From an uncultured Bacteroidaceae bacterium (GTDB taxonomy: Bacteria; Bacteroidota; Bacteroidia; Bacteroidales; SM23-62): a DNA stretch of 52,322 nt. Shown piece after piece: positions 2,086 through 49,966 of the stretch. The notes beneath the pieces were generated by a model that saw only the letters and a program-made list of their open reading frames with translations, was not told where the DNA came from and did no database searches. The position numbers and the translations under genes were made by a program. The DNA lies in NCBI GenBank assembly GCA_964540005.1, contig CAZILN010000185.1:1-52322 (forward strand), read 5' to 3'. Positions within the stretch are counted from its first letter, which is position 1. Each line of letters starts with the position of its first letter.

Positions 2086-2130
2086 AAAGATACCCCTTGT
2101 AAATATTAATTATAAAACAAATAATTTATA

Positions 2131-3408: not shown

Positions 3409-3418
3409 TTATTTGAAT

Positions 3419-5000: not shown

Positions 5001-5261
5001 GTGTTAATAATTTTTAAGTAAGTTTCATAGATATTGTTAATTCTTCAGATAATAATCAACGTGATATTATGAAAAAAAAATAAACTTAACAATTTCCCCA
5101 TATTAACAGAAATTACCCGGGTATCAACCTGACAATTTGATTTCAATGCAAACAGATAATGATATAAAGACAAATAAAGGTATATTTAAAGTTACATCGC
5201 TTCAATATCTGCTTACTTCAAAATTTGCAAATATTTAATCCAACAAACCAATAAAAATACC

Positions 5262-6950: not shown

Positions 6951-7052
6951 AATAATTGTTCTGGCTAAACCGGCTCTCAAATTACCTCCATGCTCATGAT
7001 GAATACAACAGAGAATGTCAGCCTGCCATAAATAGCCGGATATTATCTTGTT

Positions 7053-13009: not shown

Positions 13010-13015
13010 TTGTAT

Positions 13016-19908: not shown

Positions 19909-20808
19909 TTAATTATTTTTATTTATTCCATTGCCGGATGTTATCTGTTTGATTGTCTGCCAGCTCTCTGAAATTATATCTTTCAGGTTATTATCAGTAT
20001 ATTCCACTATGGTTTGACCGTATGTCATCGACAGTGTGAAAGTCTCATCATAAGGCAGATTGGCCAGATGAATGATACCTTCTTTCCTGATAAATCCTTC
20101 GATCTCTCCTGTGATCCGGGTATTCAGATCTGATTTATTTATAATGCATCCAGCAGGTATCCTGAATTTTTTAACCAGCTCATAAACCCTTTTCAAATCA
20201 TGCATTCCTGAGAGAGAGGGTTCGGTAACCAGTACCACAAAGTCCGCGCCCGAAAGCGATGAGATTACAGGACATCCAATGCCGGGGGATCCGTCAATAA
20301 TGATATAATCCTTATTAGTAACAGTTGCTGTTTTGCGTGCTTCATTCTTTACTTTTGCCACCAGTTTCCCTGAGTTATCTGCCCCTATTCCAAGCCTGGC
20401 ATGCACCATGATGCTGCCGGTTTTTATGGTTGATATAAACCACTGGCCGGCTTTAAGGCTTTGGTTTGTTATGGCATCTGCCGGACAACCCCGGGAACAA
20501 TAGCCGCAGCCTTCACAGTTCAGGGGATCAATGGTATATTGATCACCATCGAACCGTATGGCATTAAAACGGCACACATCAGCGCAGGCTCCGCATTGGG
20601 TGCACTCATCCTGGTTAATGATGGCCTGCTGGCCACTGTAGAAATCTTCCGGTTCCCCGAAATCAGGTTGCATCAGCAGATGCATGTCGGCAGCATCAAC
20701 GTCGCAATCCGCGACGATCACCTCAATCCCGCCCAGCCAGGCAAAAGAAGCGGTAATAGACGTTTTGCCGGTTCCTCCTTTCCCGGAGATGACCACGATC
20801 TCTTTCAT
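19909..20808 (-). CDS. MinD/ParA-like P-loop ATPase with inserted 2x[4Fe-4S] ferredoxin domain
   Basis: Walker A GKGGTGKT. Cys clusters CTQCGACADVC and CEGCGYCSRGCP. 4-nt ATGA-type overlap with the upstream paralogue. Confidence 0.85.
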   Translation of the reverse strand: MKEIVVISGKGGTGKTSITASFAWLGGIEVIVADCDVDAADMHLLMQPDFGEPEDFYSGQQAIINQDECTQCGACADVCRFNAIRFDGDQYTIDPLNCEGCGYCSRGCPADAITNQSLKAGQWFISTIKTGSIMVHARLGIGADNSGKLVAKVKNEARKTATVTNKDYIIIDGSPGIGCPVISSLSGADFVVLVTEPSLSGMHDLKRVYELVKKFRIPAGCIINKSDLNTRITGEIEGFIRKEGIIHLANLPYDETFTLSMTYGQTIVEYTDNNLKDIISESWQTIKQITSGNGINKNN

Positions 20809-21665
20809 ATATTGCTGCTTCGTTTGTTAATAAATTCCCAGATCTTTTTCAACTGCAGTTCCACTTCAGGAATATCCGGATAGATCAGTTTCCCGCAGGA
20901 ATACAGTTCAGCAATCCGGCGATCATTGGGTATGAGGGCAAGCACGGGGATCATTTCGTTTGTGCAATAATGCAGCACTTCCTCATTACCGATACCATGA
21001 CGGTTGATAACTACCCCGTACTGTTTACCGAGTGTCTTCATGGTTTCAACCGCCAGTTTCAGGTCATGCAATCCAAAAGGGGTGGGTTCGGTTACCAGGA
21101 TGACAAAATCAGCATTTTTCGTGGCTTCTATTACCGGGCAGGATGTCCCGGGAGGGGCATCATAAATAATGACGGTTCCATCAGGAAAGTGTTGATCGGT
21201 ATAAATTTCTGTCTGAGCAATGAGAGGAGTGGCCTGTTCCTGGCCTATCTCCAGGCTGCTTTCAATAAAACTCAGGGAATTGTCTTTAAAATGCCTTAAC
21301 TCACCCATCTTACGGGGCTTCATGGGAAGAGCAGATGCCGGGCATAATTCAGAGCAGGCATAACATCCATGGCATAATTCCGGAAACACCATTATAACCG
21401 GACCCAGTTGAATAACTGCATTGTAATTGCAGACTTCCTGGCATAAACCGCATAATGTACAATTCTGCTCATGCCATTCAGGGATCATTCTGAATTTATC
21501 TTCCTTGTGGATCAATCCGGCTTTAATGAATAATCCTGAATTAGGTTCCTCAACATCCATGTCCACCAGGACAACTTTTTGTGATTTTGCGAGATAAGAT
21601 GCCAGGTTGACTGATAAAGTGGTTTTCCCGGTACCTCCCTTTCCGCTTGCAACAGCAATCTTCAA
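20805..21665 (-). CDS. MinD/ParA-like P-loop ATPase with inserted 2x[4Fe-4S] ferredoxin domain (paralogue)
   Basis: Walker A GKGGTGKTT. Cys clusters CTLCGLCQEVC and CHGCYACSELCP. It overlaps both neighbours by 4 nt. Confidence 0.85.
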   Translation of the reverse strand: MKIAVASGKGGTGKTTLSVNLASYLAKSQKVVLVDMDVEEPNSGLFIKAGLIHKEDKFRMIPEWHEQNCTLCGLCQEVCNYNAVIQLGPVIMVFPELCHGCYACSELCPASALPMKPRKMGELRHFKDNSLSFIESSLEIGQEQATPLIAQTEIYTDQHFPDGTVIIYDAPPGTSCPVIEATKNADFVILVTEPTPFGLHDLKLAVETMKTLGKQYGVVINRHGIGNEEVLHYCTNEMIPVLALIPNDRRIAELYSCGKLIYPDIPEVELQLKKIWEFINKRSSNI

Positions 21666-22066
21666 TTGATTAAGTTATTATGTTTTTTCTCTTCAAATAA
21701 GCTGAGTGTCTTTTTAAATGTTATCATAGCCAGATGAACGCAATCAATTTTCGCTGCGGGTACCCCTCCAAGATGGTTAATAATATCTTCCTCAGCTATC
21801 TCTTTGGCTTCATTAATACTTTTCCCTGTAACCGTTTCCATAAGGGCGGATGCAGCAGAAAAAGCACCTGCACATCCGATGGCTTCAAATTTCGCCACTT
21901 TGATTATGCCGGAATCAATTATCAGATAAATCTTTAAGGTATCTCCACAATGGCCCGTATATGAAAGTACCACGGTGGGATTTTCTATTTTACCGACATG
22001 TGTTTTTTTAAGGTAGTATTCAATGGCTCTTTCAGAGTAACCTGATTTTTTTAAAAGATCATCCAT
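21662..22066 (-). CDS. NifU/IscU-like Fe-S cluster scaffold domain protein
   Basis: 134 aa. GHCGDTLKIYL, AIGCAGAFSAASAL and KIDCVHLA resemble the three-Cys IscU-like N-terminal NifU domain. Confidence 0.7.
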   Translation of the reverse strand: MDDLLKKSGYSERAIEYYLKKTHVGKIENPTVVLSYTGHCGDTLKIYLIIDSGIIKVAKFEAIGCAGAFSAASALMETVTGKSINEAKEIAEEDIINHLGGVPAAKIDCVHLAMITFKKTLSLFEEKKHNNLIN

Positions 22067-22101
22067 GCTAAACTGCTTAAGGCATTTTACGCCGGACCGG
22101 G

Positions 22102-22443
22102 TTAGTGATCACAGAGGTTCTGGCCGGTTTGAAGTTCATCACTCAGGTATGATTTAACAAGCTCCTGGGGTGAGCCACTTGAAACACCAACGCAAACCTC
22201 GATATTATTCATGGCAAAAAGATTCTGTGCTTTCATGCCCATGCCCCCGGAAATAATAACATTGACTCCCTGATCAGCCAGGAACCTTGGATAAGCACCC
22301 GGTTCATGCATGGGCGGAACCAGATAATTCATGCTTATGATGGCGTTATTTTCAGTTTCCAGTATGGCAAATTTTTCACAATGGCCAAAATGAGCGGTCA
22401 ATGAATTATTTACTACCGGGACGGCAAACTTTTTTCTGTTCAT
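22102..22443 (-). CDS. NifB/NifX-family (FeMo-cofactor-binding domain) protein
   Basis: 113 aa. HFGHCEKFAI and VNVIISGGMGMKA are typical of the family. Confidence 0.8.
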   Translation of the reverse strand: MNRKKFAVPVVNNSLTAHFGHCEKFAILETENNAIISMNYLVPPMHEPGAYPRFLADQGVNVIISGGMGMKAQNLFAMNNIEVCVGVSSGSPQELVKSYLSDELQTGQNLCDH

Positions 22444-22512
22444 AATTTTTAATGGATTTATATGAAATTTTCATTAGTATCGCTGCATATCTTTATGGGT
22501 GGCAGCAATGAT

Positions 22513-22692
22513 TTACTCTCTTACTATTTCGACCCTCCTGTTTTTTGCTTTTCCCTCATCTGTTGAATTCGCTGTGACAGGACACAGGCTGCTTACTCCG
22601 TATGCTTTTAATTGTTGAGCATTGACTCCTGACTTATTTACCATGTGGTCCGTAACAGCTTTAGCCCTGTTTTCATTTTTTGACTTTAATAA
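22513..22692 (-). pseudogene. Remnant of the C-terminus of an OmpA-family protein
   Basis: My own minus-strand translation gives LLKSKNENRAKAVTDHMVNKSGVNAQQLKAYGVSSLCPVTANSTDEGKAKNRRVEIVRE*. This matches the OmpA_C consensus tail (RA.AV...L...G......G.G...P...N.T.EG.A.NRRVE). An in-frame stop sits immediately upstream at 22693-22695, and no N-terminal part is present. Confidence 0.6.
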
Positions 22693-22766
22693 TTAATACT
22701 CTTATTATTAGTATTTACGCTAGCCATTGCTGAGAACTAAAATCAATTTGATATCATAAATTGGGC

Positions 22767-23018
22767 TTATAACTTTTTTTTGAGTAATTCTTCCCTTATC
22801 ATGGTATGTCCGCATTCAGGACATTTAATGGTGGTACATTTAACTCCCTGCTGGTGCGGTATTTTCTTTCCGCATTTTGCACAGACACATTGTCCGCCCG
22901 GACCAAAAGCACCGCCTTTGTTCCGGCCCTGTCCGCCTCCGCGGCCTAAGCCCTGTCCGCCTCCGCGGCCCAGTCCCTGTCCTGATCCGGCATTCTTGCC
23001 TCTTCCTGTTGATTTCAT
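22767..23018 (-). CDS. Small Gly/Arg-rich protein with C-terminal zinc-ribbon
   Basis: 83 aa. The N-terminal half is GRGKNAGSGQGLGRGGGQGLGRGGGQGRNKGG. The C-terminal half CVCAKCGKK...CPECGH has a 4-Cys ribbon. Confidence 0.7.
   Translation of the reverse strand: MKSTGRGKNAGSGQGLGRGGGQGLGRGGGQGRNKGGAFGPGGQCVCAKCGKKIPHQQGVKCTTIKCPECGHTMIREELLKKKL
22927..22982. repeat. 24-nt tandem repeat (2.3 copies) inside the Zn-ribbon gene, encoding GLGRGGGQ units
   Basis: The plus strand reads ccctgtccgcctccgcggcctaag / ccctgtccgcctccgcggcccagt / ccctgtcc. Confidence 0.9.
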
Positions 23019-23141
23019 AATACTGTTATTTTGATTGGTTTATCACTCTCAAAGAAAGCTGCCTCAAAATGCATTTTATTTCCAACCCCATTCCTTCTGA
23101 CTGGGAATTTCAACTGATCAATTATTCTGAGGCAGCTCCTG

Positions 23142-23492
23142 CTATTTACTCTCTTCCTTACCCAGGCTGGAGAGCCTTCCTTCCAGTGACGATAGCTGAT
23201 CCTTGAGGATCCTGATCTCGTTTTCTATCACTGTTTTTTCAGATACATCAGGGATGTTTTCGCTGTAGAAACTACCAGAGCCATACCTGAATCCCCGGCC
23301 GAATCCTCCCCTGAATCCCCGGCCAAATCCTCCTCCAGGACCAAATCCTCCCCTGAATCCTCCTCCAAAGCCTCTTGCGTATCCTCTTCCCTGATTAATA
23401 TACCCCGGATGGTCATATCCGGCACAAAATCCCATTCCTCTTCCTGTTTGCGGGCCTTCACCTACCGGGCCCGTTCTGTCTCCTCTTGGCAT
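23142..23492 (-). CDS. DUF5320 domain-containing protein (Gly/Arg/Phe-rich, C-terminal coiled coil)
   Basis: The start is reassigned to MPRGDRTGPVGEGPQTGRGMGFCAG, the hallmark DUF5320 N-terminus, which is preceded by a GGAGG Shine-Dalgarno. A GFGGGFRGGFGPGGGFGRGFRGGFGRGF tract is followed by the coiled coil IENEIRILKDQLSSLEGRLSSL. Confidence 0.75.
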   Translation of the reverse strand: MPRGDRTGPVGEGPQTGRGMGFCAGYDHPGYINQGRGYARGFGGGFRGGFGPGGGFGRGFRGGFGRGFRYGSGSFYSENIPDVSEKTVIENEIRILKDQLSSLEGRLSSLGKEESK

Positions 23493-23949
23493 AATTACCT
23501 CCTTTTTTAAAGTTAATACTGGTACAACATCTGCCGTGTCCAAATCCACCGGCCAGATTCAGCAGGTTGGTGGATCTGCATTCCGGACATTCGGCAAGTG
23601 AACTGCCAATTGTTGTTTTAAACATATGGCCACAATCCACGCACCGAATTATATTATTCCTGAAATGTATATTCCCGCCTTCGATTGTCAGGAGTTTCCC
23701 CTGGATCATAAACCTGGCTACTTTCTGCCTGGCTGTTTCAACCAATCGTGAGAATGTAGACCGGGAAATTTCCATTTCTTCAGCTGCTTCCTCGTGTGTT
23801 AAACCTTTAAAATCAGCTAATCGGATTGCTTCAAACTCATCGATGGAAAGAGCTATCTGATCCAGTGATCTTCCTGTAACTCCAACTGGTTTGAACTCTG
23901 TAAAAATCGGCGGCTCATGAATAATTCTATTGTTTTTAGGACGCGACAT
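23458..23949 (-). CDS. DUF134 (UPF0251) predicted DNA-binding protein with C-terminal Cys-rich extension
   Basis: The start is reassigned to MSRPKNNRIIHEPPIFTEFKP, the typical DUF134 N-terminus. It has a sigma-70 region-4-like HTH (LTHEEAAEEMEISRSTFSRLV) and a CVDCGH...CPEC zinc-ribbon. It overlaps the DUF5320 start by 35 nt. Confidence 0.75.
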   Translation of the reverse strand: MSRPKNNRIIHEPPIFTEFKPVGVTGRSLDQIALSIDEFEAIRLADFKGLTHEEAAEEMEISRSTFSRLVETARQKVARFMIQGKLLTIEGGNIHFRNNIIRCVDCGHMFKTTIGSSLAECPECRSTNLLNLAGGFGHGRCCTSINFKKGGNYAKRRQNGPGR

Positions 23950-24026
23950 ATACAAAAAATTATTATATTTGTCCTGCAAAGATAATGCACATATGTGCAA
24001 AATCCAAATAATATAAAATAAATGTT

Positions 24027-24562: not shown

Positions 24563-25243
24563 CTAACCTTTCTTACTTATGATCTCCAGCAGGTCTTTAT
24601 CCAGAATTTTTATCTTCCTGCCGCTCAGTTCTATTATCCCCGTATCATCAAATTCATTAAGAATGCGGCAGATGCTTTCCCGTGAAGTATTAATAAAATA
24701 CCCCAGTTCAAGTCTTGTTAAGGGTAATACAAATTCATCCTTTTCGTAGATCTCATCAGAGAAGAACAATAAGGCATCCGATGCACGGCCATGAATATAT
24801 TTCTGGGTTCGGTTTACACATTGATGAAATGAGTTCAGCTCATTGCGGCATAGTTCAATGATTATTTCGTAGGCAAAATTTCCGTTTGCAAAAATGAAGT
24901 CCTTAAATACATCAATATTAATAAAGCAGACTTTGGTATCTTCAACTGCCGTTGCAGAATATTGGTTGATCTTTTCACCAAAGGTCGTAGGGATACCCAG
25001 GTAGGATGGAGCTTTGGTAATCTTAATTATCTGCTCTTCAACCGGACCTGACATATGTATTTTAACAAGGCCGCTCCTGACATATATAATATTTGAAGAG
25101 AAGGCTCCCTGTTTAAAGATAACATCCCCCTTTCTGAAATTGACTATCACACAATTGTTCCCAAGTTTTTCCAGCTCATCTGTATTCAGAAATTTAACTG
25201 CAGATGATTGGATTTTACAATTCTTACAGATGCTCTCTTCCAT
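24563..25243 (-). CDS. Crp/Fnr family transcriptional regulator
   Basis: 226 aa with a cNMP-binding-like beta-barrel (FRKGDVIFKQG) and a C-terminal HTH (TSRESICRILNEF). The N-terminal CKNCK pair is reminiscent of Fnr-type Cys ligands, but the set is incomplete. Confidence 0.82.
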   Translation of the reverse strand: MEESICKNCKIQSSAVKFLNTDELEKLGNNCVIVNFRKGDVIFKQGAFSSNIIYVRSGLVKIHMSGPVEEQIIKITKAPSYLGIPTTFGEKINQYSATAVEDTKVCFINIDVFKDFIFANGNFAYEIIIELCRNELNSFHQCVNRTQKYIHGRASDALLFFSDEIYEKDEFVLPLTRLELGYFINTSRESICRILNEFDDTGIIELSGRKIKILDKDLLEIISKKG

Positions 25244-25283: not shown

Positions 25284-25299
25284 TGTGATCTATATCACA
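25284..25299. promoter_or_regulatory. Crp/Fnr-type operator TGTGATCTATATCACA (TGTGA-N6-TCACA)
   Basis: The 6+6 palindromic arms TGTGAT/ATCACA are perfect. The site is 41 nt from the regulator ATG and about 100 nt upstream of the DsrE-like gene. An extra half-site ATATCACA lies at 25314-25321. Confidence 0.7.
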
Positions 25300-25397: not shown

Positions 25398-25823
25398 ATG
25401 GAAAACAAAAAAATGGTAATGGCTCTTTTTTCAGGAAGCTTAGACAAACTAACCTGTGCAGGTGTTATACTCAGTGGTGCTGCGGCTGATGATATGGAAG
25501 TCGATATTTATGTACTGCTGCAGGGCGCCCGGGCCTTCAAAAAGGAAATTGCAAAAAATACGGATAAGCTGGCTATGGCAGAGAATCCTCATCTAAGAGA
25601 AGAGTTCATACAATCATTAGAGCAGCTCAAGGTAAAACCATGGCATGAATTTTTTAAGGAAGCCAAAGAACTTACCAGCGTTAAGATTCACGTTTGCGGG
25701 TTGGCCGGGAAGCTCTGGGGAGGTGAAAAAATTGATGACTTCATTGATCTTGCCGACGATATATGCGGTATAGGGGAATATGTCTCAGCTGCACAGGAAG
25801 CTGATGTGCACCTGTTTATCTAA
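25398..25823 (+). CDS. DsrE/DsrF-like family protein
   Basis: 141 aa. MALFSGSLDKLTCAGVILSGAAA and the HVCGLAG pattern match the DsrE-like peroxiredoxin-family fold commonly paired with TusA. Confidence 0.65.
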   Translation: MENKKMVMALFSGSLDKLTCAGVILSGAAADDMEVDIYVLLQGARAFKKEIAKNTDKLAMAENPHLREEFIQSLEQLKVKPWHEFFKEAKELTSVKIHVCGLAGKLWGGEKIDDFIDLADDICGIGEYVSAAQEADVHLFI

Positions 25824-25887
25824 ACAGCAATCATTAGCTGTAACGAAATATAGGTAACTGTAATAATAAATTACTAAATCTAACATC

Positions 25888-26139
25888 ATGGAAGCACAAG
25901 AATTAAGCGGTCTTACAGTAAATAAAGTTGTTGACGCCCGTGGAACGGCATGTCCAGGTCCACTGCTGGCAGCTAAAAAAGCCATTGCAGAAATCGGCTC
26001 GGGTGATATTATGGAGATACTATCTTCAGATGAAGGAACAAGACGGGATATCCCGAAATGGGCCGGTAAGAAGGGTCATGAGTATCTGGGGACCCTTGAA
26101 GAATCGGGTTATTTTAAGATCTACATGAAGAAACAATAA
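25888..26139 (+). CDS. TusA/SirA-like sulfurtransferase
   Basis: 83 aa. DARGTACPGPLLAAKKAI carries the Cys-Pro-x-Pro active-site motif. Confidence 0.85.
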   Translation: MEAQELSGLTVNKVVDARGTACPGPLLAAKKAIAEIGSGDIMEILSSDEGTRRDIPKWAGKKGHEYLGTLEESGYFKIYMKKQ

Positions 26140-26144
26140 GGAGG

Positions 26145-26546
26145 ATGGAGGGCTCAGAAGGTAAGAATTCTCCAAAGATCCTGGTATTCTCAACAGAAAA
26201 GATCTCAGATCCTGCTATAGACCTTGCCGGTTTGCTTAAAATGCACTATCCGCCAACGGTCTGCACTATAAGTATTCCCTGCTCCAGCGCTGTCAAACCC
26301 AGGTGGATCATGCATGCCTTTGAGAAGGGTTACGACGGTGTTTTTATTGCAGCTGACGGCACGGATTGCCCGTACAGCGATAGTTGTACCGACAATACGG
26401 CCTGGATTGTCGGGCAAACCCATGAGCTGATGAAGGAGAAAGGTTTGAAGCCTGAAAGACTGAGGATGGCTGCCATCTGTTCCGTGTGTTCGGAGCCCTT
26501 TGTCAGGCAGATGAAAACCTTTGCAGAATCCTTCTCGGGATCTTAA
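26145..26546 (+). CDS. MvhD/FlpD-like (methyl-viologen-reducing hydrogenase delta subunit) domain protein, Cys-depleted variant
   Basis: KILVF...AIDLAGLLKMHYPP...IPCSS...HAFEKGYDGVFIAADGTDCPY aligns to the MvhD pattern I recall (CNWCSY...VMCSG...GCHxGDCHY). The first CxxC is replaced by STEKIS and the GCH Cys is absent. A GGAGG Shine-Dalgarno lies upstream. Confidence 0.7.
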   Translation: MEGSEGKNSPKILVFSTEKISDPAIDLAGLLKMHYPPTVCTISIPCSSAVKPRWIMHAFEKGYDGVFIAADGTDCPYSDSCTDNTAWIVGQTHELMKEKGLKPERLRMAAICSVCSEPFVRQMKTFAESFSGS

Positions 26547-26556
26547 AAGCATTGTT

Positions 26557-27858
26557 ATGACAGAATTAACAGCAGATTATGATGTTCTGGTCATCGGGGG
26601 AGGCATAGCCGGGGAAGAGGCTGCCTTAAACCTTGCATATTCGGGTTTTAAGATCCTGCTTGTTGAGAAGGATTTTTCAATCGGTGGCAAAATGATCCAC
26701 CTGAGCAAGGTTTTTCCCACCCTTGACTGCGCTGCCTGCATCACCACACCAAAAGTATCGGAAACGGTCAGGCATCCGAATATTACCATATTTACCAGCT
26801 CTGAGGTCCGGGATATAGAAAAGCAAGCGGACAATAGTTTTTCCTTCACCCTGGTTGAAAACCCGAGATACGTGACAGATGATTGCACAGGCTGCCAGGT
26901 CTGTGAGGAAAAATGTCCCATCGTTGTGGATGACCAGTATCAATGGGACCTGGTAGGCAGAAAAGCAATATATATACCATTCAGTATTGCGAGTCCGCGC
27001 ATCGCGGCTATTGATATCGAGAATTGTATACTCTGTGGATTATGCGAGAAATTATGTCCTGCGGACGCTATTGACTTTACCCAGGAAATAAGACAGAGTA
27101 CTGTTACAGTCAGATCAATCATCTTCGCAACCGGTTTCAGGCTTTTCGATCCGCTGCAAATGCCACGGTACGGTTTCGGACAATATAAGAATGTGGTTAC
27201 TTCCATGCAAATGGAAAGACAGCTGGTTCCCACCCGGCCGTATAACACCGTACTGCGTCCGGGGGACGGCAAAGTACCTGATAATATTGCCTATGTCCTG
27301 TGTACAGGTTCCCGCGATGAGAGCATCGGAAACCCTATCTGTTCCCAGGTTTGCTGCATGTATTCCATTAAGCAGGCACAACTGCTGATGGGTGCCTTAC
27401 CCATGGCCGATATTACTATTTATTATATCAATATAAGAGCCTTTGGTAAAGGATTCAATGAGTTTTATGAACAATCAAAAGATATGGGGGTTGAATTCGT
27501 AAAGGCAAAAATTGCAAAAATCGACAAAAAAGAGAACGGAAACCTGGTCCTAAGGTATGAAGACATTAAGGAAGCGAAAATTATGGAGACCGAACATGAT
27601 ATGGTAGTATTATCGATTGGTTTTCTCGCAAATACTGAGTTCTCAGGGATGTTTAAAAATGATTCGGTTGAAGAGGACAGTTATCATTTTATAAAACAAA
27701 CGCAGGTATTGGCCAGTCCGGCAAAAACAAGCATTGAAGGGATTTTTGTTGCCGGAACTGCATCAGGACCCATGGATATTCCTGACTCTATCCTGTCTGC
27801 CGGGGCAGCTTCTTCCGAAACGGCCGGTTATATCAGGAGGCTTAGCAATGAAGAATAA
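26557..27858 (+). CDS. HdrA-like FAD/Fe-S oxidoreductase, short form (QmoA-like architecture)
   Basis: The start is reassigned to MTELTADYDVLVIGGGIAGEEAA (FAD dinucleotide fold). Also present: LDCAACITTPK, the ferredoxin insert CTGCQVCEEKCP / CILCGLCEKLCP, CSQVCCMYS and FVAGTASGPMDIPDS. 433 aa. Confidence 0.85.
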   Translation: MTELTADYDVLVIGGGIAGEEAALNLAYSGFKILLVEKDFSIGGKMIHLSKVFPTLDCAACITTPKVSETVRHPNITIFTSSEVRDIEKQADNSFSFTLVENPRYVTDDCTGCQVCEEKCPIVVDDQYQWDLVGRKAIYIPFSIASPRIAAIDIENCILCGLCEKLCPADAIDFTQEIRQSTVTVRSIIFATGFRLFDPLQMPRYGFGQYKNVVTSMQMERQLVPTRPYNTVLRPGDGKVPDNIAYVLCTGSRDESIGNPICSQVCCMYSIKQAQLLMGALPMADITIYYINIRAFGKGFNEFYEQSKDMGVEFVKAKIAKIDKKENGNLVLRYEDIKEAKIMETEHDMVVLSIGFLANTEFSGMFKNDSVEEDSYHFIKQTQVLASPAKTSIEGIFVAGTASGPMDIPDSILSAGAASSETAGYIRRLSNEE

Positions 27859-29782
27859 AATAGGTGTATATATCTGTCAGTGTGGTTCAAACATCTCCGA
27901 TTATGTTGATGTAGAAAAAGTCAAAGATATTGTATCCGCACGGGACGGGGTCAAACTGGCAAAAACAACCATGTTTGCCTGCGCAGATTCGGTCCAGAAA
28001 GAGATCGTCCAGGATATACAAGAAAACGAACTGGATGCTATTGTTATCGCTTCCTGTTCACCGAAACTGCATTTATTCACCTTTCGTGCTGTGGCTGAAC
28101 GTGCCGGCCTGAATCCCTATAATTATGTCCAGGTAAATATACGTGAACAATGTTCATGGGCCCATTCTGACAATCCGGTCAAAGCCACGGATAAAGCAAT
28201 CCGGCTGATCGAAGCAGGTATAGCACGGGTCAGGCATTCTGCAGCACTGGAGAAAATTAAGATCGAAGCTCAGAATACTGTTGTAGTTGTTGGCGCCGGC
28301 ATAGCAGGCATGCGTGCCGCTATTGAACTTGCTGATATGGGATCACAGGTCTTTTTGATTGAAAGGGAATATTATACAGGGGGCAGGCTTGCTCAATGGA
28401 ATGAACTTTATCCCAGCAGCGAATCCGGACACGATATCATCGCCGGGCTTTATAAGCAATTGATCAATCACAGGAACATAAGAGTTTATACCGGGGCGGA
28501 GATTGTTTCAAATACGGGAATTATGGGTGACTATACAATAGAAGTCAGCATCAGGCCCAGGTATATCAGTACGGATACCAGGATAGATGCTGCAGTGCTG
28601 CAGAAGGCTATAGATGCCTGTCCTGTTGAAACAGATGATGATTTTAATTTTAATCTTACCATTAGGAAGGCCATTTATAAAAACCCTACGGGCACATATC
28701 CTGACATACCTGTAATCGATGTTGGATCCTGCAATAAATGCGGTGAATGCCTTAAAATATGTAAGGATATAGATCTTGAACGAAAATCCGAAACAGTAGA
28801 GATCCATGCAGGGGCCATTTTACTGGCAACCGGTTTCGACCTTTATGAACCCCAGCCCGGGGAGTTTGCTTACTCCCGGATAGACAATGTTATTACATTT
28901 CAGCAATTCAGGCGGTTGATAGAACTGAATGAAAAGGAGCTGGTTTATAAGAACAGGACTATCAGGAACATCGCCTATATATACTGCGTGGGGAGCCGGC
29001 AGGCAGATAATGGCAATAAATATTGCTCACGTTATTGTTGCACGGCTGCCATCCATTCAGCTATCCTGGCAAGGAAAAAATACCCCGGCATAAATAATTT
29101 TCATTTTACCAGGGGGATAAGGACATACGGTAAACAGGAAGTGATATACCAGGAAAGTCTGAATAATGGTGACCTGTTCATGCAATCCTTCGAAGATGAT
29201 CCCCCTGTAGTAGAAAAACAGGGTAATGAGACTATTGTAAAGATCAGGGATGTTCTGACTGAAAACACAGAACTTGAAGTGAGTGCAGACCTGGTTGTGC
29301 TGATTACCGCTATGGTTCCCCGTAAGGATAATTCCATAGCCGGTATCCTGAAAGTTCCCCTCGGGCGTGATAATTTTTTCAATGAAATTCATCCAAAACT
29401 CCGTCCTGTTGAGACAGTTATCGATGGCGTGTTTATTGCAGGGGTTTGCCAGGGACCAAAAAACATAACTGAATCAGTACAATCGGCATTATCTGCCGCA
29501 TCAAAAGCATATTCCATGCTCAGCAAAGGGGAAATAGAACTGGAACCCACCCTTGCCAGGATAGATAAGAGCCTTTGTCAGTGGTGTGATAAATGCCTGG
29601 AAGTATGTCCCTATGATGCAATTGTTAAAACAGAGCATGAAGGCAAAACGGTAGCTGTTGTTAATGAGCCAAACTGTAAGGGCTGTGGGATGTGCTTACC
29701 GGTTTGTCCGGAAAATGCAATTGATCTTATTGGTTATACGGATAAGGAAATTGAAAGTATGATAGATGCCATGGCGGAATAA
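27848..29782 (+). CDS. hdrA: HdrA-like heterodisulfide reductase subunit A homologue, long form
   Basis: The start is reassigned to MKNKIGVYICQCGSNI (HdrA N-terminal domain) and overlaps the previous stop by 11 nt. It has a FAD fold VVVVGAGIAGMRAA, CSRYCCTAAIH, the insert CNKCGECLKIC and the C-terminal 2x[4Fe-4S] CQWCDKCLEVCP / CKGCGMCLPVCP. 644 aa. Confidence 0.88.
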   Translation: MKNKIGVYICQCGSNISDYVDVEKVKDIVSARDGVKLAKTTMFACADSVQKEIVQDIQENELDAIVIASCSPKLHLFTFRAVAERAGLNPYNYVQVNIREQCSWAHSDNPVKATDKAIRLIEAGIARVRHSAALEKIKIEAQNTVVVVGAGIAGMRAAIELADMGSQVFLIEREYYTGGRLAQWNELYPSSESGHDIIAGLYKQLINHRNIRVYTGAEIVSNTGIMGDYTIEVSIRPRYISTDTRIDAAVLQKAIDACPVETDDDFNFNLTIRKAIYKNPTGTYPDIPVIDVGSCNKCGECLKICKDIDLERKSETVEIHAGAILLATGFDLYEPQPGEFAYSRIDNVITFQQFRRLIELNEKELVYKNRTIRNIAYIYCVGSRQADNGNKYCSRYCCTAAIHSAILARKKYPGINNFHFTRGIRTYGKQEVIYQESLNNGDLFMQSFEDDPPVVEKQGNETIVKIRDVLTENTELEVSADLVVLITAMVPRKDNSIAGILKVPLGRDNFFNEIHPKLRPVETVIDGVFIAGVCQGPKNITESVQSALSAASKAYSMLSKGEIELEPTLARIDKSLCQWCDKCLEVCPYDAIVKTEHEGKTVAVVNEPNCKGCGMCLPVCPENAIDLIGYTDKEIESMIDAMAE

Positions 29783-29799
29783 GGATAAAAATTTCGGAA

Positions 29800-30075
29800 A
29801 TGAAAAAAACAATTGATCATATCAAGGAGAAAAGGACGGTTTCCGAGGAATTAAAAGAAAAGCGTAAAGAGGACAACAGGATCAATAAACTGATCCTTAA
29901 AGCACTTGAATCCGGACCAAAGACCATTCCCCGGATTGCAGGGGAAACCGGGCTCGCGGAAGATATTGTTACCTATTATCTGATGACCCTCAGGAAATAC
30001 GGAAAGCTGGAAACCGGAGAGATTGATGATATGGATGAGTATTTCAACTATAAACTGAAACAGAAAAATGAATAA
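29800..30075 (+). CDS. Small winged-helix DNA-binding-like protein
   Basis: 91 aa. ILKALESGPKTIPRIAGETGLAEDIVTYYLMTLRKYGKL resembles a wHTH (ArsR/MarR-like) core. It is the last gene of the HdrA operon. Confidence 0.55.
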   Translation: MKKTIDHIKEKRTVSEELKEKRKEDNRINKLILKALESGPKTIPRIAGETGLAEDIVTYYLMTLRKYGKLETGEIDDMDEYFNYKLKQKNE

Positions 30076-30319: not shown

Positions 30320-30380
30320 GATACCTGCTCAAAAGAAAGTTTACGGCAGTTCAGATGCCACCAACTAAAATTTGAGAAAA

Positions 30381-32066
30381 ATGAAAACAATTATTGTATT
30401 GATTTCAACAGTAACACTTCTGACTGCAACATTTGCAAATGGAGTGTCAAAAGGGAAAAGCCAACCCGCGACAGACTCCATTCATATCCTGTGTAGTCCC
30501 GACCTGGTGGAAATAGCCGGCACATGGGCTGCAAAATACACAAGTGATAATCCGGGAGCCGGCCTGTCGGTAAGCAGGATACCTGACCAAGGCTTGGATG
30601 ATATGTTGCAGACCGCCGGTACTATCTCTCTTGTCAGTAAGAAATACCTCCCTAATGCAGCCGGCCAGCGAACATGGAAGATGGTAGTAGGCCGGGATGT
30701 TGTTGTACCTGTTATGAATTCTGAAAACCCATACAGGGAGGAGATATTGCAGAAAGGGATCTCGCCTGAGGAATTTGCCGAACTTGTCAGTACTCCGGGC
30801 CGGCTTAGCTGGGGAATACTATTGAACAATACAGTTTCAGATCCTGTTAGGCCTTATTCTGCTAGCGATCAGTCTACCAGGACTTACCTGGCTGAATTCC
30901 TTGAGATAGATCAGCATTATATCACAGGGATAGAAACTGAAAATGCAGATGAGATGCTGAACTGCATCAGAAATGACAGGTTTGCCATTGGCTTTTGCCG
31001 GCTGACGGATATACTGGAGACCGGGGACAATGAAGTTATACCTGGAATAAGCCTTATACCGGTTGACAAGAACGGGAATGATCAGCTTGACCTTTTTGAG
31101 GATATTTATAATAATACCGGTGAACTGACCAGGGGTATCTGGATTGGCAAGTACCCGGGTACCTTATACAGCAGGTTGTATATGGTGGCCGCTGCCCGGC
31201 CGACCAGCGATAATGAACTGGCATTTATGGAATGGCTTGTCACCGAAGGTCAGCAATACCTGCCGGAGGATGGGTTCACAAGCCTGATTTACAGTGAGAG
31301 GCAATCTATGCTGCATAGTATTTATGACTACGGCATCCCTGTTGTTGATGTTCCTGTCAGAAGGGCTTCACAGCTAAAGTTATTCCTGATTATTACCGGA
31401 GCACTGCTGCTTGTTGCCATAATCCTTTATTTGCTTGCCAGGATCTTCAGGACCGGGAAATGGGAGGATGAAACAGTCGATGTCTGCCGCCTGTCTGTTT
31501 TCAGGGAAAACGCTGTTACATTTCCTACAGGATTATTTTTTGATAAAACTCATACATGGACCTTTATGGAAAAAGACGGCCGGGTACGAACCGGTATTGA
31601 TGATTTTCTTCAGCATGTAACAGGCCCCATTACAAGGGTGAAAATGAAGAAAGCCGGCGACAGGGTCGTTAAAGGAGAAACATTCCTTTCACTGATCCAG
31701 CGAGGCAAACAACTTGATATTCAATCGCCTGTATCAGGGATCATCAGGGAACAGAATTCAGAACTGGTTGCAGACTCGGAAACAATTAATGATGCTCCCT
31801 TTTCCGCTGGCTGGGTGTATGTAGTTGAACCCGGCAACTGGCTGAAAGAGATCAATACTTATCTCATGGGGGATAAGTACAGGGAATGGTTAAAAACCGA
31901 ATTTTCACGACTGAAGAATTTCCTGGCATCGGGCTTAAAACCCATGGAAACCGTAAATCCTGAACTCGTATTGCAGGATGGGGGTGAGATCAGGGACGGG
32001 GTACTTGAGTGTTATGGCCCGGAGGCATGGGAAGAATTTCAGTCCGGGTTCCTGCATACGGTTTGA
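30381..32066 (+). CDS. Fusion protein: signal peptide - PstS-like periplasmic binding domain - TM helix - GcvH-like domain
   Basis: ATG at 30381 (MKTIIVLISTVTLLTATFA) is preferred. The PBP-like N-terminal half includes IHILCSPDLVEIAGTWAAKY and VGRDVVVPVMNSENP. One TM helix (LFLIITGALLLVAIILYLLARIF) follows. The C-terminal part, HTWTFMEKDGRVRTGIDDFLQHVTG...GKQLDIQSPVSGII...PFSAGWVYVVEP, aligns along its length to the glycine-cleavage H-protein fold. Confidence 0.7.
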   Translation: MKTIIVLISTVTLLTATFANGVSKGKSQPATDSIHILCSPDLVEIAGTWAAKYTSDNPGAGLSVSRIPDQGLDDMLQTAGTISLVSKKYLPNAAGQRTWKMVVGRDVVVPVMNSENPYREEILQKGISPEEFAELVSTPGRLSWGILLNNTVSDPVRPYSASDQSTRTYLAEFLEIDQHYITGIETENADEMLNCIRNDRFAIGFCRLTDILETGDNEVIPGISLIPVDKNGNDQLDLFEDIYNNTGELTRGIWIGKYPGTLYSRLYMVAAARPTSDNELAFMEWLVTEGQQYLPEDGFTSLIYSERQSMLHSIYDYGIPVVDVPVRRASQLKLFLIITGALLLVAIILYLLARIFRTGKWEDETVDVCRLSVFRENAVTFPTGLFFDKTHTWTFMEKDGRVRTGIDDFLQHVTGPITRVKMKKAGDRVVKGETFLSLIQRGKQLDIQSPVSGIIREQNSELVADSETINDAPFSAGWVYVVEPGNWLKEINTYLMGDKYREWLKTEFSRLKNFLASGLKPMETVNPELVLQDGGEIRDGVLECYGPEAWEEFQSGFLHTV

Positions 32067-32113
32067 TAAGACAAAAAAGTTATTTAACATAATTAATTTA
32101 TTCTAATCTGATA

Positions 32114-32989
32114 ATGGGAATCAATCGACGAAATTTTTTCAAAGTACTTGGTTTGACAGGCGTATCACTGGGAACAGGCAAGAAGCTTGTTGCCATGCCT
32201 GATCAGGGAGATGATAAGGAATTCCGGGCCATCCTCTATGATGCAACCCGTTGCGGGGGGTGCCAGAGTTGTGAACTTGTATGTGCCTGGGAACATGATT
32301 TGCCTGAACCGGATCCTGAGGATATCCCCGTAGCGGGGATTCTCCGGAAGACCAATGAAAACAGGCGTTCTGTAATTAATGCTTATGAGACTTCCAGGGG
32401 GGAAGTATATGTTAAAAACCAGTGTATGCAGTGCAATCAGCCTGCCTGCGCTGCTGCCTGCCTGACCAGGGCCATGTATAAAACCGAGGAGGGACCCGTA
32501 ATCTGGAGGGGTGATAAGTGCATGGGCTGCCGGTACTGCATGGTCTCCTGTCCCTTTGATGTGCCTAAATTCGAATACAACAGTCCGAACCCTAAAATTG
32601 AAAAATGCAATATGTGTTTTGAAAAGGTAAAAGAGGGTGAGCTACCGGTCTGTGTCGAGAACTGCCCGGCTGAGGCCCTTACATTCGGGACCCGAAGGGA
32701 GCTGATTGCCGAGGCGCACAGGAGGATACATGATGACCCTGATCTGTACTATGACGGGGTTTATGGTGAACATGAAGCAGGAGGAACAGGATTTTTATAT
32801 CTCTCACCGGTCCCTTTCGAGGAGCTGGGATTCAATACCTCACTTCTGGACAGGCCTTATCCTGAATTAACAAAAGGATTCCTGTACTCTGTGCCTACAA
32901 TTTTTGTTTTGTGGCCCGCATTGTTACTGGGAATACACAATTCAACAAAGAATAATTCAAATAAGCCTGACCAGGATGAAGATGAATAA
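32114..32989 (+). CDS. NrfC/DsrO/HybA-type periplasmic 4x[4Fe-4S] ferredoxin subunit with Tat signal and C-terminal TM anchor
   Basis: Tat motif INRRNFFKVLGLTG. Four Cys clusters: CGGCQSCELVC, CMQCNQPACAAAC, CMGCRYCMVSCP and CNMC...CVENCP. Hydrophobic tail VPTIFVLWPALLLGI. Confidence 0.85.
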   Translation: MGINRRNFFKVLGLTGVSLGTGKKLVAMPDQGDDKEFRAILYDATRCGGCQSCELVCAWEHDLPEPDPEDIPVAGILRKTNENRRSVINAYETSRGEVYVKNQCMQCNQPACAAACLTRAMYKTEEGPVIWRGDKCMGCRYCMVSCPFDVPKFEYNSPNPKIEKCNMCFEKVKEGELPVCVENCPAEALTFGTRRELIAEAHRRIHDDPDLYYDGVYGEHEAGGTGFLYLSPVPFEELGFNTSLLDRPYPELTKGFLYSVPTIFVLWPALLLGIHNSTKNNSNKPDQDEDE

Positions 32990-34211
32990 AGCAGATTATA
33001 TCTTACCGCAAGATAATGACGGCAGGCCGGTTGTCAAATTCCTGGCTGCCGAACTCAAACCCAGGGGCAGGTTCCTGACTCCCTTCAATATCATTTCCTT
33101 ACCAATCATGATCCTAGGCATTGTGTTGATAGTCATTCGTTTTGCCAGGGGTATAGGTTCCATTACCAACCTTACCCAGGAAGTGCCCTGGGGCCTGTGG
33201 ATAGGATTTGATGTGGTAACAGGTGTTGCATTTGCCGGCGGAGCCTATGTTATAACATTCCTGGTCTATATTCTGAATGTGAAAAAGTATCATTCGATTG
33301 TCAGGGTGACAGTATTGAACGGGTTCCTGGCCTATGTATTTTATGCCGGTGCACTGCTTCTTGATCTTGGAAGACCATGGAATGTCATAAATCCTATCAT
33401 AGGGAACAGTTTCGGTGTCAGTTCTGTTCTGTTTCTTGTTGCCTGGCATTTCCTGCTTTACATGATAGCCCAGCTTATAGAATTCTCCCCGGCAATTGCC
33501 GAATGGTTAGGAGCCAGAAAAGCCAGAAAGATACTTTCGGGTATGACACTTGCCGCTGTCATTTTCGGAATCACCCTTTCCACTTTGCACCAGTCAGGTT
33601 TGGGAGCGCTGTACCTTATGGCCAAAGAAAAGATACATCCCTTGTGGTATTCTGAATTCATTCCCATCCTGTTCTTTGTGTCCAGCATTTTCGCAGGCCT
33701 GTCCATGGTGATTTTTGAAGGCTCGATCAGCCAGAAAGTCTTTTTTAAACAGATCAGTCCTGAGAATCATAAAACACACAATGGGATCCTGCATGGTTTG
33801 TCAAAGATTTGTGCCTTTACCCTCTTTGTATACTTTTTCCTGCAACTGCTTGTATTTGTACACGGACAGCACTGGGATCTGATTGGTACACCTATGGGTT
33901 ACTGGTACCTGACCGAGATGCTGGGATTTGTTCTGGTACCCATGCTGCTCTTTTTCTACAGTTACAGGAAACAGAACATTTTCATGATCAAGCTTGCCGC
34001 AATCATTACCATGCTGGGAGTAATAATAAACAGGCTGAACGTCACCGTCATTGGATTTAAATGGGATGCTGCTAATCATTACTATCCTTCATGGATGGAA
34101 ATTGTTGTAACGCTGACCGTCCTTTTTATCGAGATATGGATTTTCAGGTGGATAGTGAATCGCCTGCCGGTACTCAGGGACCCCCCGGCCTGGGCAAGGG
34201 AAAGTAATTAA
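32976..34211 (+). CDS. NrfD/PsrC/DsrP-type integral membrane quinone-interacting subunit
   Basis: The start is reassigned to MKMNKADY and overlaps the NrfC-like stop. About 410 aa, 8-10 TM helices, and the family-typical blocks WGLWIGFDVVTGVAFAGGAY and LGRPWN. Confidence 0.82.
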   Translation: MKMNKADYILPQDNDGRPVVKFLAAELKPRGRFLTPFNIISLPIMILGIVLIVIRFARGIGSITNLTQEVPWGLWIGFDVVTGVAFAGGAYVITFLVYILNVKKYHSIVRVTVLNGFLAYVFYAGALLLDLGRPWNVINPIIGNSFGVSSVLFLVAWHFLLYMIAQLIEFSPAIAEWLGARKARKILSGMTLAAVIFGITLSTLHQSGLGALYLMAKEKIHPLWYSEFIPILFFVSSIFAGLSMVIFEGSISQKVFFKQISPENHKTHNGILHGLSKICAFTLFVYFFLQLLVFVHGQHWDLIGTPMGYWYLTEMLGFVLVPMLLFFYSYRKQNIFMIKLAAIITMLGVIINRLNVTVIGFKWDAANHYYPSWMEIVVTLTVLFIEIWIFRWIVNRLPVLRDPPAWARESN

Positions 34212-34231
34212 GAACTATAAATAGTAAAAAA

Positions 34232-34951
34232 ATGAACGGATTTACATATACTGATATTTTTGACACCAAAGGCATTGAATACCTGATAATAATAGGGTTC
34301 CTGCTGTTGATCATTCCCGTATGGATACTGATAAACAGGCCCCTGAACCTGGGAATGAAAGTCAGGGAGGCGCTGGGGACACTGACAGATCGTATACTGC
34401 GCATCCCCCAGGGATTGTTCTACAGTAAAAATCATACCTGGACCTACCTGGAGAAATCGGGACTGGCAAGGGTGGGGATAAATGATCTCCTGCAGCATAT
34501 TACAGGCAGGATAGAACTGAACGATCTGCATGTTCCGGGGGAAAGGATAAATAAGGGCGATGTAATTGCACGGATCATACAGGATGGTAAGCACCTGGAC
34601 ATAACTTCTCCCATTTCCGGGGAGATACAGAAAGTTCATACCTCATTGGAACAGGATTCTGGCACCATCAATAAGGACCCATATGGTGAAGGCTGGATAT
34701 ATAAGATCAAACCGCATAGGTGGCTTGACGACACCTTTAGCTGTTACCTGGCTGGAGAAGCTACCGAATGGCTGAATAAGGAACTGAGAAGGTTTAAGGA
34801 TTTCCTGCTTGAAGCAATTAACCGTGATGCACCGGAATCATCTGCGGTAATAATGCAGGAAGGGGGAGAAATGTCCGATAATCCGCTTTCAGGAATGAGT
34901 AAGACAATCTGGAATGACTTCCAGAAAATGTTCCTCGACACAATAGACTGA
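34232..34951 (+). CDS. Membrane-anchored GcvH-like protein (paralogue of the C-terminal half of the 30381 fusion)
   Basis: N-terminal TM helix (IEYLIIIGFLLLIIPVWILI), then YSKNHTWTYLEKSGLARVGINDLLQHITG...GKHLDITSPISGEI...PYGEGWIYKIKP. This aligns to E. coli GcvH (YSKEHEWL...VGIT...ESVKAASDIYAPVSGEI...PYAGGWIFKIK) and continues into a tail shared with the fusion protein (EWL..EL.R.K.FL). Confidence 0.75.
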   Translation: MNGFTYTDIFDTKGIEYLIIIGFLLLIIPVWILINRPLNLGMKVREALGTLTDRILRIPQGLFYSKNHTWTYLEKSGLARVGINDLLQHITGRIELNDLHVPGERINKGDVIARIIQDGKHLDITSPISGEIQKVHTSLEQDSGTINKDPYGEGWIYKIKPHRWLDDTFSCYLAGEATEWLNKELRRFKDFLLEAINRDAPESSAVIMQEGGEMSDNPLSGMSKTIWNDFQKMFLDTID

Positions 34952-35046
34952 AAAGTGTCAGTTAAAGAGATATAGATACAATCAATTTATGTAAATTTTA
35001 AAGATAATTTGAATCCCGGTCGACCCTGATATAAAATGACGCAAAC

Positions 35047-36717: not shown

Positions 36718-36727
36718 GAAATATATA

Positions 36728-38065: not shown

Positions 38066-38070
38066 TTTGA

Positions 38071-49915: not shown

Positions 49916-49966
49916 CACCACCCGGCTCACACAAGCGAAGGGCACCAGGTCAGAAAGGAAGCAATT

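Follow-up and report, generated by a model that had tools for sequence, protein, structure and literature searches.

We suggest that positions 25,398 to 30,075 of contig CAZILN010000185.1 (uncultured Bacteroidaceae bacterium, assembly GCA_964540005.1; the entire contig of 52,322 nucleotides is called the window below) encode the cytoplasmic core of an HdrA-type flavin/iron-sulfur persulfide oxidoreductase, similar to the 'type II Qmo' complexes, fed by the sulfur carriers TusA and DsrE and soluble in the form found here. We put the probability of this reading at about 0.5. Judged by gene order and protein families, the full system is conserved across phyla and consists of a divergent Crp-type regulator and genes for a DsrE-like protein, TusA, an MvhD-like protein, a short and a long HdrA paralogue and a small winged helix-turn-helix (wHTH) protein, normally completed by a QmoC paralogue, which the window lacks. 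The evidence comes from the constancy of this arrangement, from an MvhD-like protein in which ligand cysteines have been lost and a new CxxC pair gained, and from the association of the operon with sulfur-trafficking genes.

Gene order, cysteine patterns and sulfur carriers

The six open reading frames (ORFs) of the forward strand are closely packed, with an 11-nt overlap between the two HdrA genes (Table 1). Their order was the same in 80/80 species-level loci fetched, and the arrangement is therefore not due to chance. In a scan of one genome per species the MvhD-like subtype was encoded in at least 551 species genomes, mainly of sediment and digester Bacteroidales, with further carriers among Krumholzibacteriota and Chloroflexota; one carrier, Prolixibacter denitrificans DSM 27267 (L065), is in culture, and the closest relatives of the window protein come from Bacteroidales metagenome-assembled genomes (MAGs). 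All synteny statistics given here rest on the 80 loci fetched from these at least 551 genomes, 62 of which include enough downstream sequence to be informative for QmoC.

Alignment of the window MvhD-like protein to the PDB chain 5odc_D (sequence match at 1.6e-14) and to other MvhD, VhuD and ElpC chains places FSTEKIS at the position of the MvhD motif FCCNWC and D71 at that of the GCH cysteine. The equivalents of MvhD C13, C16 and C67 are T17, I20 and D71, and the T17 and D71 replacements occur in all orthologues, while C46 and C75 are kept at canonical positions together with the Asp of the GDC motif (D74). Since Cys16 of MvhD has been termed 'additional' (PMC13580544), and since the type I QmoB encoded in one of the loci (L008, discussed below) retains exactly four cysteines, at the positions of MvhD C13, C4x, C67 and C72, we infer by elimination that these four are the ligands of the MvhD [2Fe-2S] cluster. 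With two of the four presumed ligand positions and Cys16 missing, the usual [2Fe-2S] site cannot be intact.

An earlier note on this DNA, made from its letters alone, had described the operon as an HdrA pair with a stand-alone, cysteine-depleted MvhD-like protein and no HdrBC or QmoC. Its coordinates, lengths and domain calls for the six genes agree with the ORFs and with the Pfam and NCBIfam matches, and it was right that the N-terminal CxxC and the GCH cysteine are missing, that the canonical cysteine set is thus incomplete, and that binding of the usual cluster is doubtful. The term 'cysteine-depleted', however, is wrong. The protein has six cysteines, five of which (C46, C75, C81, C112 and C115) are invariant in 81/81 genome orthologues as well as in alignments of 18 and 62 homologues. 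C81 and the C-terminal C112-x2-C115 pair, which the note had overlooked, are gained relative to canonical MvhD and are all invariant, so that the protein is better described as rewired. Overall, we find the earlier observation largely right and its interpretation partly right.

An AlphaFold2 model of the MvhD-like protein (pLDDT 77) superimposes on 5odh_D and 5odc_D with a TM-score of 0.81-0.83 and a root-mean-square deviation of 2.3 Å. By the secondary structure of the model, each of the five invariant cysteines is found either where strand 2, 3 or 4 ends C-terminally or where the next helix begins, and the edge of the sheet that holds them in the model is the site of the canonical cluster.

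A wider lineage of such proteins was found by a search of 1.84 billion cluster representatives followed by alignment, and 18 members were sampled. All 18 carry the motif (I/V)C(S/T)xC after strand 4, a place taken by WISASEG in canonical MvhD and by FVEITDY in type I QmoB. Beyond this motif the cysteines of the lineage are variable: the loss of cluster-ligand cysteines amounts to two or more depending on the group, and to all of them in Chloroflexota, whose members have the C-terminal CxxC as their only cysteines. It follows that the CxxC, and not an Fe-S site, is the constant feature, and on this alignment it marks out a separate lineage of MvhD-like proteins and is the sole cysteine feature common to all of it.

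The two HdrA paralogues differ from each other in a consistent way. The short one aligns with methanogen HdrA (9sfi_A, 1.5e-112, residues 142-561 covered) and retains the FAD (flavin adenine dinucleotide) domain of thioredoxin-reductase-like fold, both CxxCxxCxxxC motifs of the inserted 2x[4Fe-4S] ferredoxin domain, four HA4-type cysteines and a FPTLDC58AAC61 pair beside the flavin; its 14 cysteines, and likewise the FPTLDCxxC motif, are invariant in 74/74 orthologues. The long one aligns end to end with 5odc_A (1.2e-130) and includes a cluster domain at its N-terminus and a 2x[4Fe-4S] ferredoxin domain at its C-terminus; where the short one has the Cys pair it reads YPSSESGH, and its inserted ferredoxin domain contains one complete cysteine motif only. 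It stops at position 641 of the 777 of the HdrA2 model, where the MvhD domain of fused forms would start, in agreement with the earlier description of the MvhD module as a separate upstream ORF. The same asymmetry, with a Cys pair in the short paralogue and none in the long one, is repeated in the type I QmoA/QmoB pair, where the pair reads CPPYC, and in the Chloroflexota versions, and the likening of the two proteins to QmoA and QmoB is supported. Both score below the curated cut-off of 1100 bits for this methanogen-type model, and lower still against the other two methanogen HdrA models (model set NF040770, NF041778, NF041891). One cysteine of the long paralogue, C102 (REQCSW, window positions 28151-28153; REHCSW in methanogens), is present in only 12/63 orthologues and is replaced by Asp in Chloroflexota, and the N-terminal cluster site may for this reason differ between lineages. 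In one locus (L001, positions 11748-13680 of a 375-kb contig) the long HdrA is split into ORFs of 458 and 162 aa; the same operon occurs on a second contig of the same sample with an intact gene of 643 aa (L002, 2957-4888), and the split is probably a frameshift or an assembly error.

The linkage to sulfur trafficking is seen at two levels. Within the operon, the TusA protein matches PF01206 and its active-site cysteine in the Cys-Pro-x-Pro motif (C22, ACPGP) is invariant in 77/77 orthologues, as is C100 of the DsrE-like protein in 68/68; the latter protein scores 22 bits against the NCBIfam DsrE2 model (cut-off 210) and is not a DsrE2 equivalog. Beyond it, in 13/80 loci the operon adjoins a second TusA, a YeeE/YedE (Sulf_transp) transporter, 2-4 rhodaneses and often an OprO/P-type porin. 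In Chloroflexota the operon runs from a regulator through TusA, the MvhD-like protein with the CxxC as its only cysteines, a short HdrA whose motif reads FPTLDCCSC, a long HdrA lacking the pair and a homologous small wHTH protein to a QmoC paralogue, and then to a rhodanese and/or DsrE. These patterns make a protein-bound sulfane sulfur substrate plausible, in line with the persulfide substrate proposed in the earlier note.

The wHTH protein described there as the last of the operon was also confirmed, with 22/26 orthologues matching the ArsR-type family HTH_5 (best 4e-07) and with weak PDB profile matches to NmtR, HlyU and CzrA. Its gene overlaps both neighbours by 4 nt in Chloroflexota, start and stop codons included. 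Given this translational coupling and the constant position of the gene between those for the long HdrA and QmoC, the protein may be either a regulator or a subunit. A DsrC-like role was considered and is ruled out by the lack of cysteines and by the ArsR-type wHTH matches.

A Crp-family regulator occupies the same divergent position in most orthologous loci, and among 42 loci with a divergent Crp|DsrE pair a TGTGA-N6-TCACA box lies 105-142 nt 5' of the first gene in 36, against a background rate of 0.5 matches per 10 kb. The adjacent regulator would be the likely binder of this box. Simple scans for sigma-70 promoters and terminators gave counts at background level.

A possible route of electrons to carrier-bound sulfur

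In methanogen Hdr, the Cys pair of HdrA is flanked on one side by the MvhD cluster and on the other by the partner HdrA's FAD (PMC13580544), and a role as a redox-active (seleno)disulfide relay has been put forward for it (PMC13518236). By analogy with these structures, the two HdrA paralogues of the operon would form a pseudo-dimer, which fits their Cys-pair asymmetry. The MvhD-like protein may ride on the long HdrA, turned towards the short one's Cys pair and FAD, and in this position would present C112xxC115 to the flavin-adjacent C58xxC61. Electrons from ferredoxin would enter via the C-terminal domain of the long HdrA and could travel from FAD to the HdrA CxxC, on to the MvhD-like CxxC and finally to the TusA persulfide, possibly assisted by a cluster on C46/C75/C81. 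The substrate, on this reading, would be sulfane sulfur held as a persulfide on TusA/DsrE and derived from thiosulfate, polysulfide or S0, and the product would be released as H2S. In most lineages the QmoC paralogue, with two [4Fe-4S] clusters and di-haem b, would couple the flavin to menaquinone as a third partner, and such a QmoC-containing form could operate by confurcation or bifurcation among ferredoxin, quinone and the sulfur couple. The mean potential of ferredoxin and menaquinone is close to that of the S0/H2S couple, which makes a con- or bifurcating scheme thermodynamically sensible. In the clade of the window, judging by its gene content, the complex is most likely soluble and ferredoxin-linked.

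We tentatively go one step further, with appreciably less confidence than in the persulfide oxidoreductase as such. The MvhD-like protein may act as a dithiol/disulfide (or sulfane-accepting) shuttle built on the MvhD fold, and not as an Fe-S wire. Its C112xxC115 would be reduced by the CxxC of the QmoA-like protein, much as thioredoxin is reduced by thioredoxin reductase, and would then cleave the TusA persulfide, doing the job of HdrB or DsrK without a CCG-type non-cubane cluster; forms with QmoC would couple ferredoxin, menaquinone and S0/H2S by flavin-based con- or bifurcation.

Several points weigh against the assignment as a persulfide oxidoreductase. The presumed MvhD ligands were arrived at by elimination and do not come from a published structure description. 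YeeE and rhodanese genes are absent from the 52-kb window. Menaquinol alone is too weak a reductant for a persulfide, and the quinone-coupled form would consequently require the confurcation scheme. The sequence does not constrain the direction of the reaction, reduction or oxidation, and a QmoC or HdrBC partner is possibly encoded in the part of the genome beyond the window.

Anaerobic energy conservation depends centrally on HdrA and Qmo modules, and the route of electrons from MvhD to the bifurcating flavin is an open question in the Hdr structures of 2025-2026, in which the HdrA Cys pair is the suspected relay (PMC12350162, PMC13580544, PMC13518236). The operon amounts to a natural experiment on this question: an MvhD homologue has lost ligand cysteines and always has a CxxC, while the partner HdrA retains its Cys pair. 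Through it, fermentative heterotrophs may also turn over thiosulfate or zero-valent sulfur along a route so far overlooked, of a kind that surveys of sulfur-cycle markers (dsr, apr, psr/phs, sox, sHdr) would miss. No paper combining mvhD, tusA and hdrA for these phyla was found in the searchable full-text literature, and the system, which is widespread, cross-phylum and tied to sulfur trafficking, is apparently uncharacterised.

Loss of QmoC in the clade of the window and competing explanations

Pfam scans, tblastn and a CCG motif scan found no QmoC, HdrB, HdrC, HdrD or CCG-domain gene in the 52-kb window, where no credible ORF contains a CCG motif, nor was there a CCG hit in the gene tables of the orthologous loci examined. 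The earlier claim that the system has neither HdrBC nor QmoC is thus correct for the window and incorrect for the system, as the orthologous operons regularly hold a QmoC-type gene: in 57/62 informative loci a QmoC paralogue of 350-390 aa comes after the other genes of the operon, immediately after the wHTH gene in 56 of these 57. The paralogues match the NCBIfam qmoC model NF038018 over its full length at 152-201 bits (equivalog cut-off 300 bits) and have eight invariant cysteines. Their histidines H233 (57/57), H356 (56/57), H338 (51/57) and H152 (42/57) are conserved and suited to two b haems.

The five loci without QmoC are L005, L006, L007, L008 and L038. In a neighbour-joining tree of the concatenated HdrA proteins, L005, L007, L008 and L038 group with the window and L069 in one clade; L006, in which the long HdrA is split, was not placed. 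Two more loci of the QmoC-less type, L086 and L087, also have an operon that ends at the wHTH gene. No remnant of QmoC was detected after the wHTH gene in the window, L005-L008 or L038 (all E-values >1), and the downstream genes differ among the genomes of the clade. Because the exceptions form a single clade, we conclude that the absence of QmoC is, as far as the phylogeny of these proteins tells, a lineage-specific and derived single loss from the operon and not the design of the system. At least seven species-level genomes of this clade, which includes GCA_964574985.1 and the LJUQ01 MAG, have the six ORFs intact and all cofactor cysteines retained, and nonsynonymous divergence (dN) is 0.08-0.27 with saturated synonymous divergence (dS), giving dN/dS of 0.056-0.098 where computable. 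These ratios indicate that the genes of the QmoC-less clade are under strong purifying selection and that the remaining genes are still functional.

One of the QmoC-less loci, L008 (contig CAYQQR010000059.1 of an uncultured 'Bacteroidaceae' MAG), contains at 289-7117 a canonical aprB-aprA-qmoA-qmoB-qmoC set with MvhD-fused qmoB. It lies directly 5' of the Crp|DsrE-TusA-MvhD-HdrA-HdrA-wHTH operon (AprA 887 bits; QmoC 351 bits against the cut-off of 300). With L008 inside the QmoC-less clade, this places dissimilatory adenosine 5'-phosphosulfate (APS) reductase genes beside the system in a Bacteroidota genome.

It is possible, though we think it unlikely, that the clade is functionally unchanged and still membrane-coupled, through a QmoC- or HdrBC/HdrD-type partner whose gene lies in another part of the genome or that is used in common with a canonical Qmo. 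The presence of QmoC in nearly all other orthologous operons would lead one to expect this, the apr-qmo set of L008 offers an example of a canonical Qmo at hand, and the window is a single contig with the rest of its genome unseen. At the same time, QmoC-like and CCG genes are missing not only from the window but also from ~10 kb on each side (less at contig ends) in L005, L006, L007 and L038, and the operons of L086 and L087 stop at the same gene. Identity between the type I QmoC of L008 and the QmoC paralogues that belong to the operon is just ~25-30%, and the flanks of the operon are different in every genome of the clade, both of which argue against a shared or relocated partner.

Within the window itself, the HmcB/HmcC-like and the two GcvH-like genes at 30372-34951 were considered as a QmoC substitute or a lipoate partner and rejected: the same seven-gene module is found elsewhere without an Hdr operon nearby, the relatives of the window carry other genes after the wHTH gene, and a 300-bp AT-rich gap separates the two units. 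The complete module (30372-38607) encodes a PBP_like_2-transmembrane (TM)-GcvH-like protein (564 aa), an HmcB/HybA-like twin-arginine translocation (Tat) Fe-S protein, an HmcC/HybB (NrfD)-like membrane protein, a TM-GcvH-like protein (239 aa), a HAMP histidine kinase, a sigma54 response regulator and an M54 peptidase, and this gene order recurs in further contigs of Bacteroidales that lack Hdr genes in the vicinity. Homologues of the TM-GcvH-like protein number >1,400 and are annotated just as 'glycine cleavage H'; in them the Lys at the lipoyl position seems by eye to be conserved.

Less probable again is an oxidative direction, or no direct action on sulfur at all, in which case a bifurcating HdrA module would reduce ferredoxin (and quinone) with electrons from sulfide, from sulfur at the persulfide level or from another donor of middle potential, TusA and DsrE being only carriers or serving an unrelated thiolation. 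An N-terminal 'shuttle' domain together with a C-terminal ferredoxin domain is indeed the architecture of bifurcating Hdr (PMC13580544), the oxidative systems sHdr and rDsr are fed by TusA and DsrE (PMC11094781), and some carriers of the operon, such as Prolixibacter, are nitrate reducers (PMC8368055). However, the operon has no HdrB/CCG subunit, no lipoate-binding partner and no sulfite-forming enzyme, which leaves oxidation past the persulfide level without a catalyst; the import-type module of YeeE, rhodaneses and porin in some of the loci suggests the use of external thiosulfate or polysulfide, and most carriers look like fermentative polysaccharide-degrading Bacteroidales.

The proposal of the earlier note itself, a membrane-independent HdrA pair that by design combines a cofactor-less, cysteine-poor MvhD-like protein with the lack of HdrBC and QmoC, is very improbable and largely refuted by the synteny survey: the wHTH gene does come last in the operon, both in the window and in the rest of the clade, and three canonical MvhD cysteine positions are missing, but against this stand the five invariant cysteines with their new CxxC, the QmoC paralogues of the orthologous operons and the Chloroflexota versions, and the derived nature of the QmoC-less state as a loss in one clade. 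Finally, a decaying, non-functional remnant is hardly credible in spite of the loss of one conserved subunit gene, and was rejected on dN/dS, the intact ORFs and cofactor cysteines and the CRP-type box still present 5' of the operon pointing the same way.

Known systems, feature coordinates and neighbouring genes

Persulfide oxidoreductase or not, the complex resembles several known systems. Like type I QmoABC of sulfate reducers and Chlorobi, it has a short and a long HdrA with the Cys pair only in the short one, an MvhD-type module and, as far as the orthologous operons go, a subunit of QmoC type that has 2x[4Fe-4S] and conserved haem b histidines. The 433-aa protein has the FAD and inserted ferredoxin domains of QmoA, whereas the long paralogue lacks the fused MvhD of QmoB, this module being a separate upstream gene here and part of the C-terminus in type I QmoB (e.g. 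in L008). Type I QmoB keeps the four canonical MvhD cysteines and has no C-terminal CxxC; the window MvhD-like protein keeps two of the four and has the CxxC. The window HdrA paralogues are 23-38% identical to the type I QmoA/QmoB pair (30-38% for the 433-aa protein and QmoA) and score far higher on the NCBIfam methanogen HdrA2 model, and the QmoC proteins of orthologous operons fall under the equivalog cut-off. Type I Qmo is linked to aprBA, in contrast to the TusA/DsrE linkage and the additional small wHTH gene seen here; Pfam scans found no aprBA in the window, and in the loci it is nearby only in L008, with its own type I qmoABC.

The term 'type II' QmoAB(C) has been used for HdrA-like Qmo of Vulcanisaeta moutnovskia and Ammonifex degensii, found also in organisms without Dsr/Apr, where its role is unexplained (Neukirchen et al., PMC10504309). 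The window system shares with it, as far as the retrieved passages of that paper describe it, subunits closer to typical HdrA than to bacterial QmoAB and an occurrence without the Dsr/Apr pathway; those passages make no mention of a TusA/DsrE linkage, of a stand-alone MvhD-like protein of the CxxC type or of a wHTH gene. It probably belongs with 'type II' Qmo, to which we liken it by description and, indirectly, by closeness to HdrA.

With methanogen HdrABC-MvhAGD (and Fdh- or Elp-Hdr) it shares the full HdrA architecture in the long paralogue, the MvhD fold and FPTxDCxxC in the short paralogue. It differs in that HdrB and HdrC are lacking, as is any hydrogenase, Fdh or Elp input, and in the presumed pairing of two unlike HdrA paralogues as a heterodimer. 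Genes for hydrogenase, Fdh and Elp are absent from the operon in all 80 loci and from the window, and the MvhD-like protein, with the PF02662 sequence and the MvhD fold, has neither the four presumed cysteine ligands nor an input module to connect to. The sHdr-LbpA system of sulfur oxidisers likewise combines an Hdr-related complex with a genetic link to sulfur transferases of the TusA and DsrE families (PMC11094781), but it has the CCG subunits HdrB1C1/B2C2, a minimal sHdrA and the lipoate-binding LbpA, none of which are in the window operon. sHdrA (6tjr_A) matches only part of the window HdrA proteins, and the GcvH-like genes downstream of the operon belong to the independent module described above, found also without Hdr genes.

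A parallel in proposed logic is offered by the Npsr flavoprotein persulfide/polysulfide reductases, for which a DsrE-Npsr-TusA-rhodanese fusion has been noted (PMC7887784), and the thioredoxin reductase/thioredoxin persulfide relay, in which FAD and a redox Cys pair reduce sulfane sulfur borne by TusA, DsrE or rhodanese. The families are unrelated in detail, the complex proposed here having an HdrA-type flavoprotein, many Fe-S clusters and an MvhD-fold dithiol carrier, and its electron donor is probably ferredoxin or quinol rather than NAD(P)H.

Table 1. Coordinates of the operon, its regulatory region and related gene sets in orthologous loci (window positions unless a locus is named)
Feature	Position	Strand	Details
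Crp/Fnr-family regulator, divergent	24563-25243	-	226 aa; Pfam cNMP_binding 5.7e-14, HTH_Crp_2 2.7e-13
CRP-type palindrome TGTGATCTATATCACA (TGTGA-N6-TCACA)	25284-25299		divergent promoter region; 114 nt 5' of the DsrE-like start codon
DsrE-like protein	25398-25823	+	141 aa; Pfam DrsE_2 (PF13686), 38.8 bits vs cut-off 25
TusA-family sulfurtransferase	25888-26139	+	83 aa; PF01206, 78.7 bits
MvhD-like protein (FlpD/MvhD family)	26145-26546	+	133 aa; PF02662, 100.3 bits vs cut-off 22.3
Short HdrA paralogue (QmoA-like)	26557-27858	+	433 aa; NCBIfam HdrA2 positions 136-557, 462 bits
Long HdrA paralogue (QmoB-like, no MvhD domain)	27848-29782	+	644 aa; NCBIfam HdrA2 positions 1-641, 574 bits
Small ArsR-type wHTH protein	29800-30075	+	91 aa, zero Cys; window copy with weak Pfam HTH matches
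TusA-YeeE/YedE-rhodanese-porin module	L082 3891-9283		also in L016, L020, L024, L032, L034, L047
TusA-YeeE/YedE-rhodanese-porin module, further loci			L050, L059, L062, L063, L074, L075
Chloroflexota operon	L090 6518-15184		same architecture as the window system
Chloroflexota operon	L091 7353-13830		same architecture as the window system

Elsewhere in the window there are glycoside hydrolases, an extracytoplasmic function (ECF) sigma/FecR/TonB-receptor set and DUF4249, from which we take the host to be a polysaccharide-degrading member of the Bacteroidota. On the reverse strand, positions 19909-24000 encode two MinD/ParA-type ATPases with 4Fe-4S ferredoxin inserts, NifU_N and Nitro_FeMo-Co (NifX/NifB-like) proteins, a Gly-rich, Cys-containing protein of 83 aa, DUF5320 and DUF134. 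Genes for CooT, DUF8180 and a ParA/CbiA protein lie close to the operon in the Chloroflexota locus L090. Further along the window, at 47351-51358, a CheB-CheR fusion with a PAS_10 domain (854 aa) is followed by a PAS histidine kinase.

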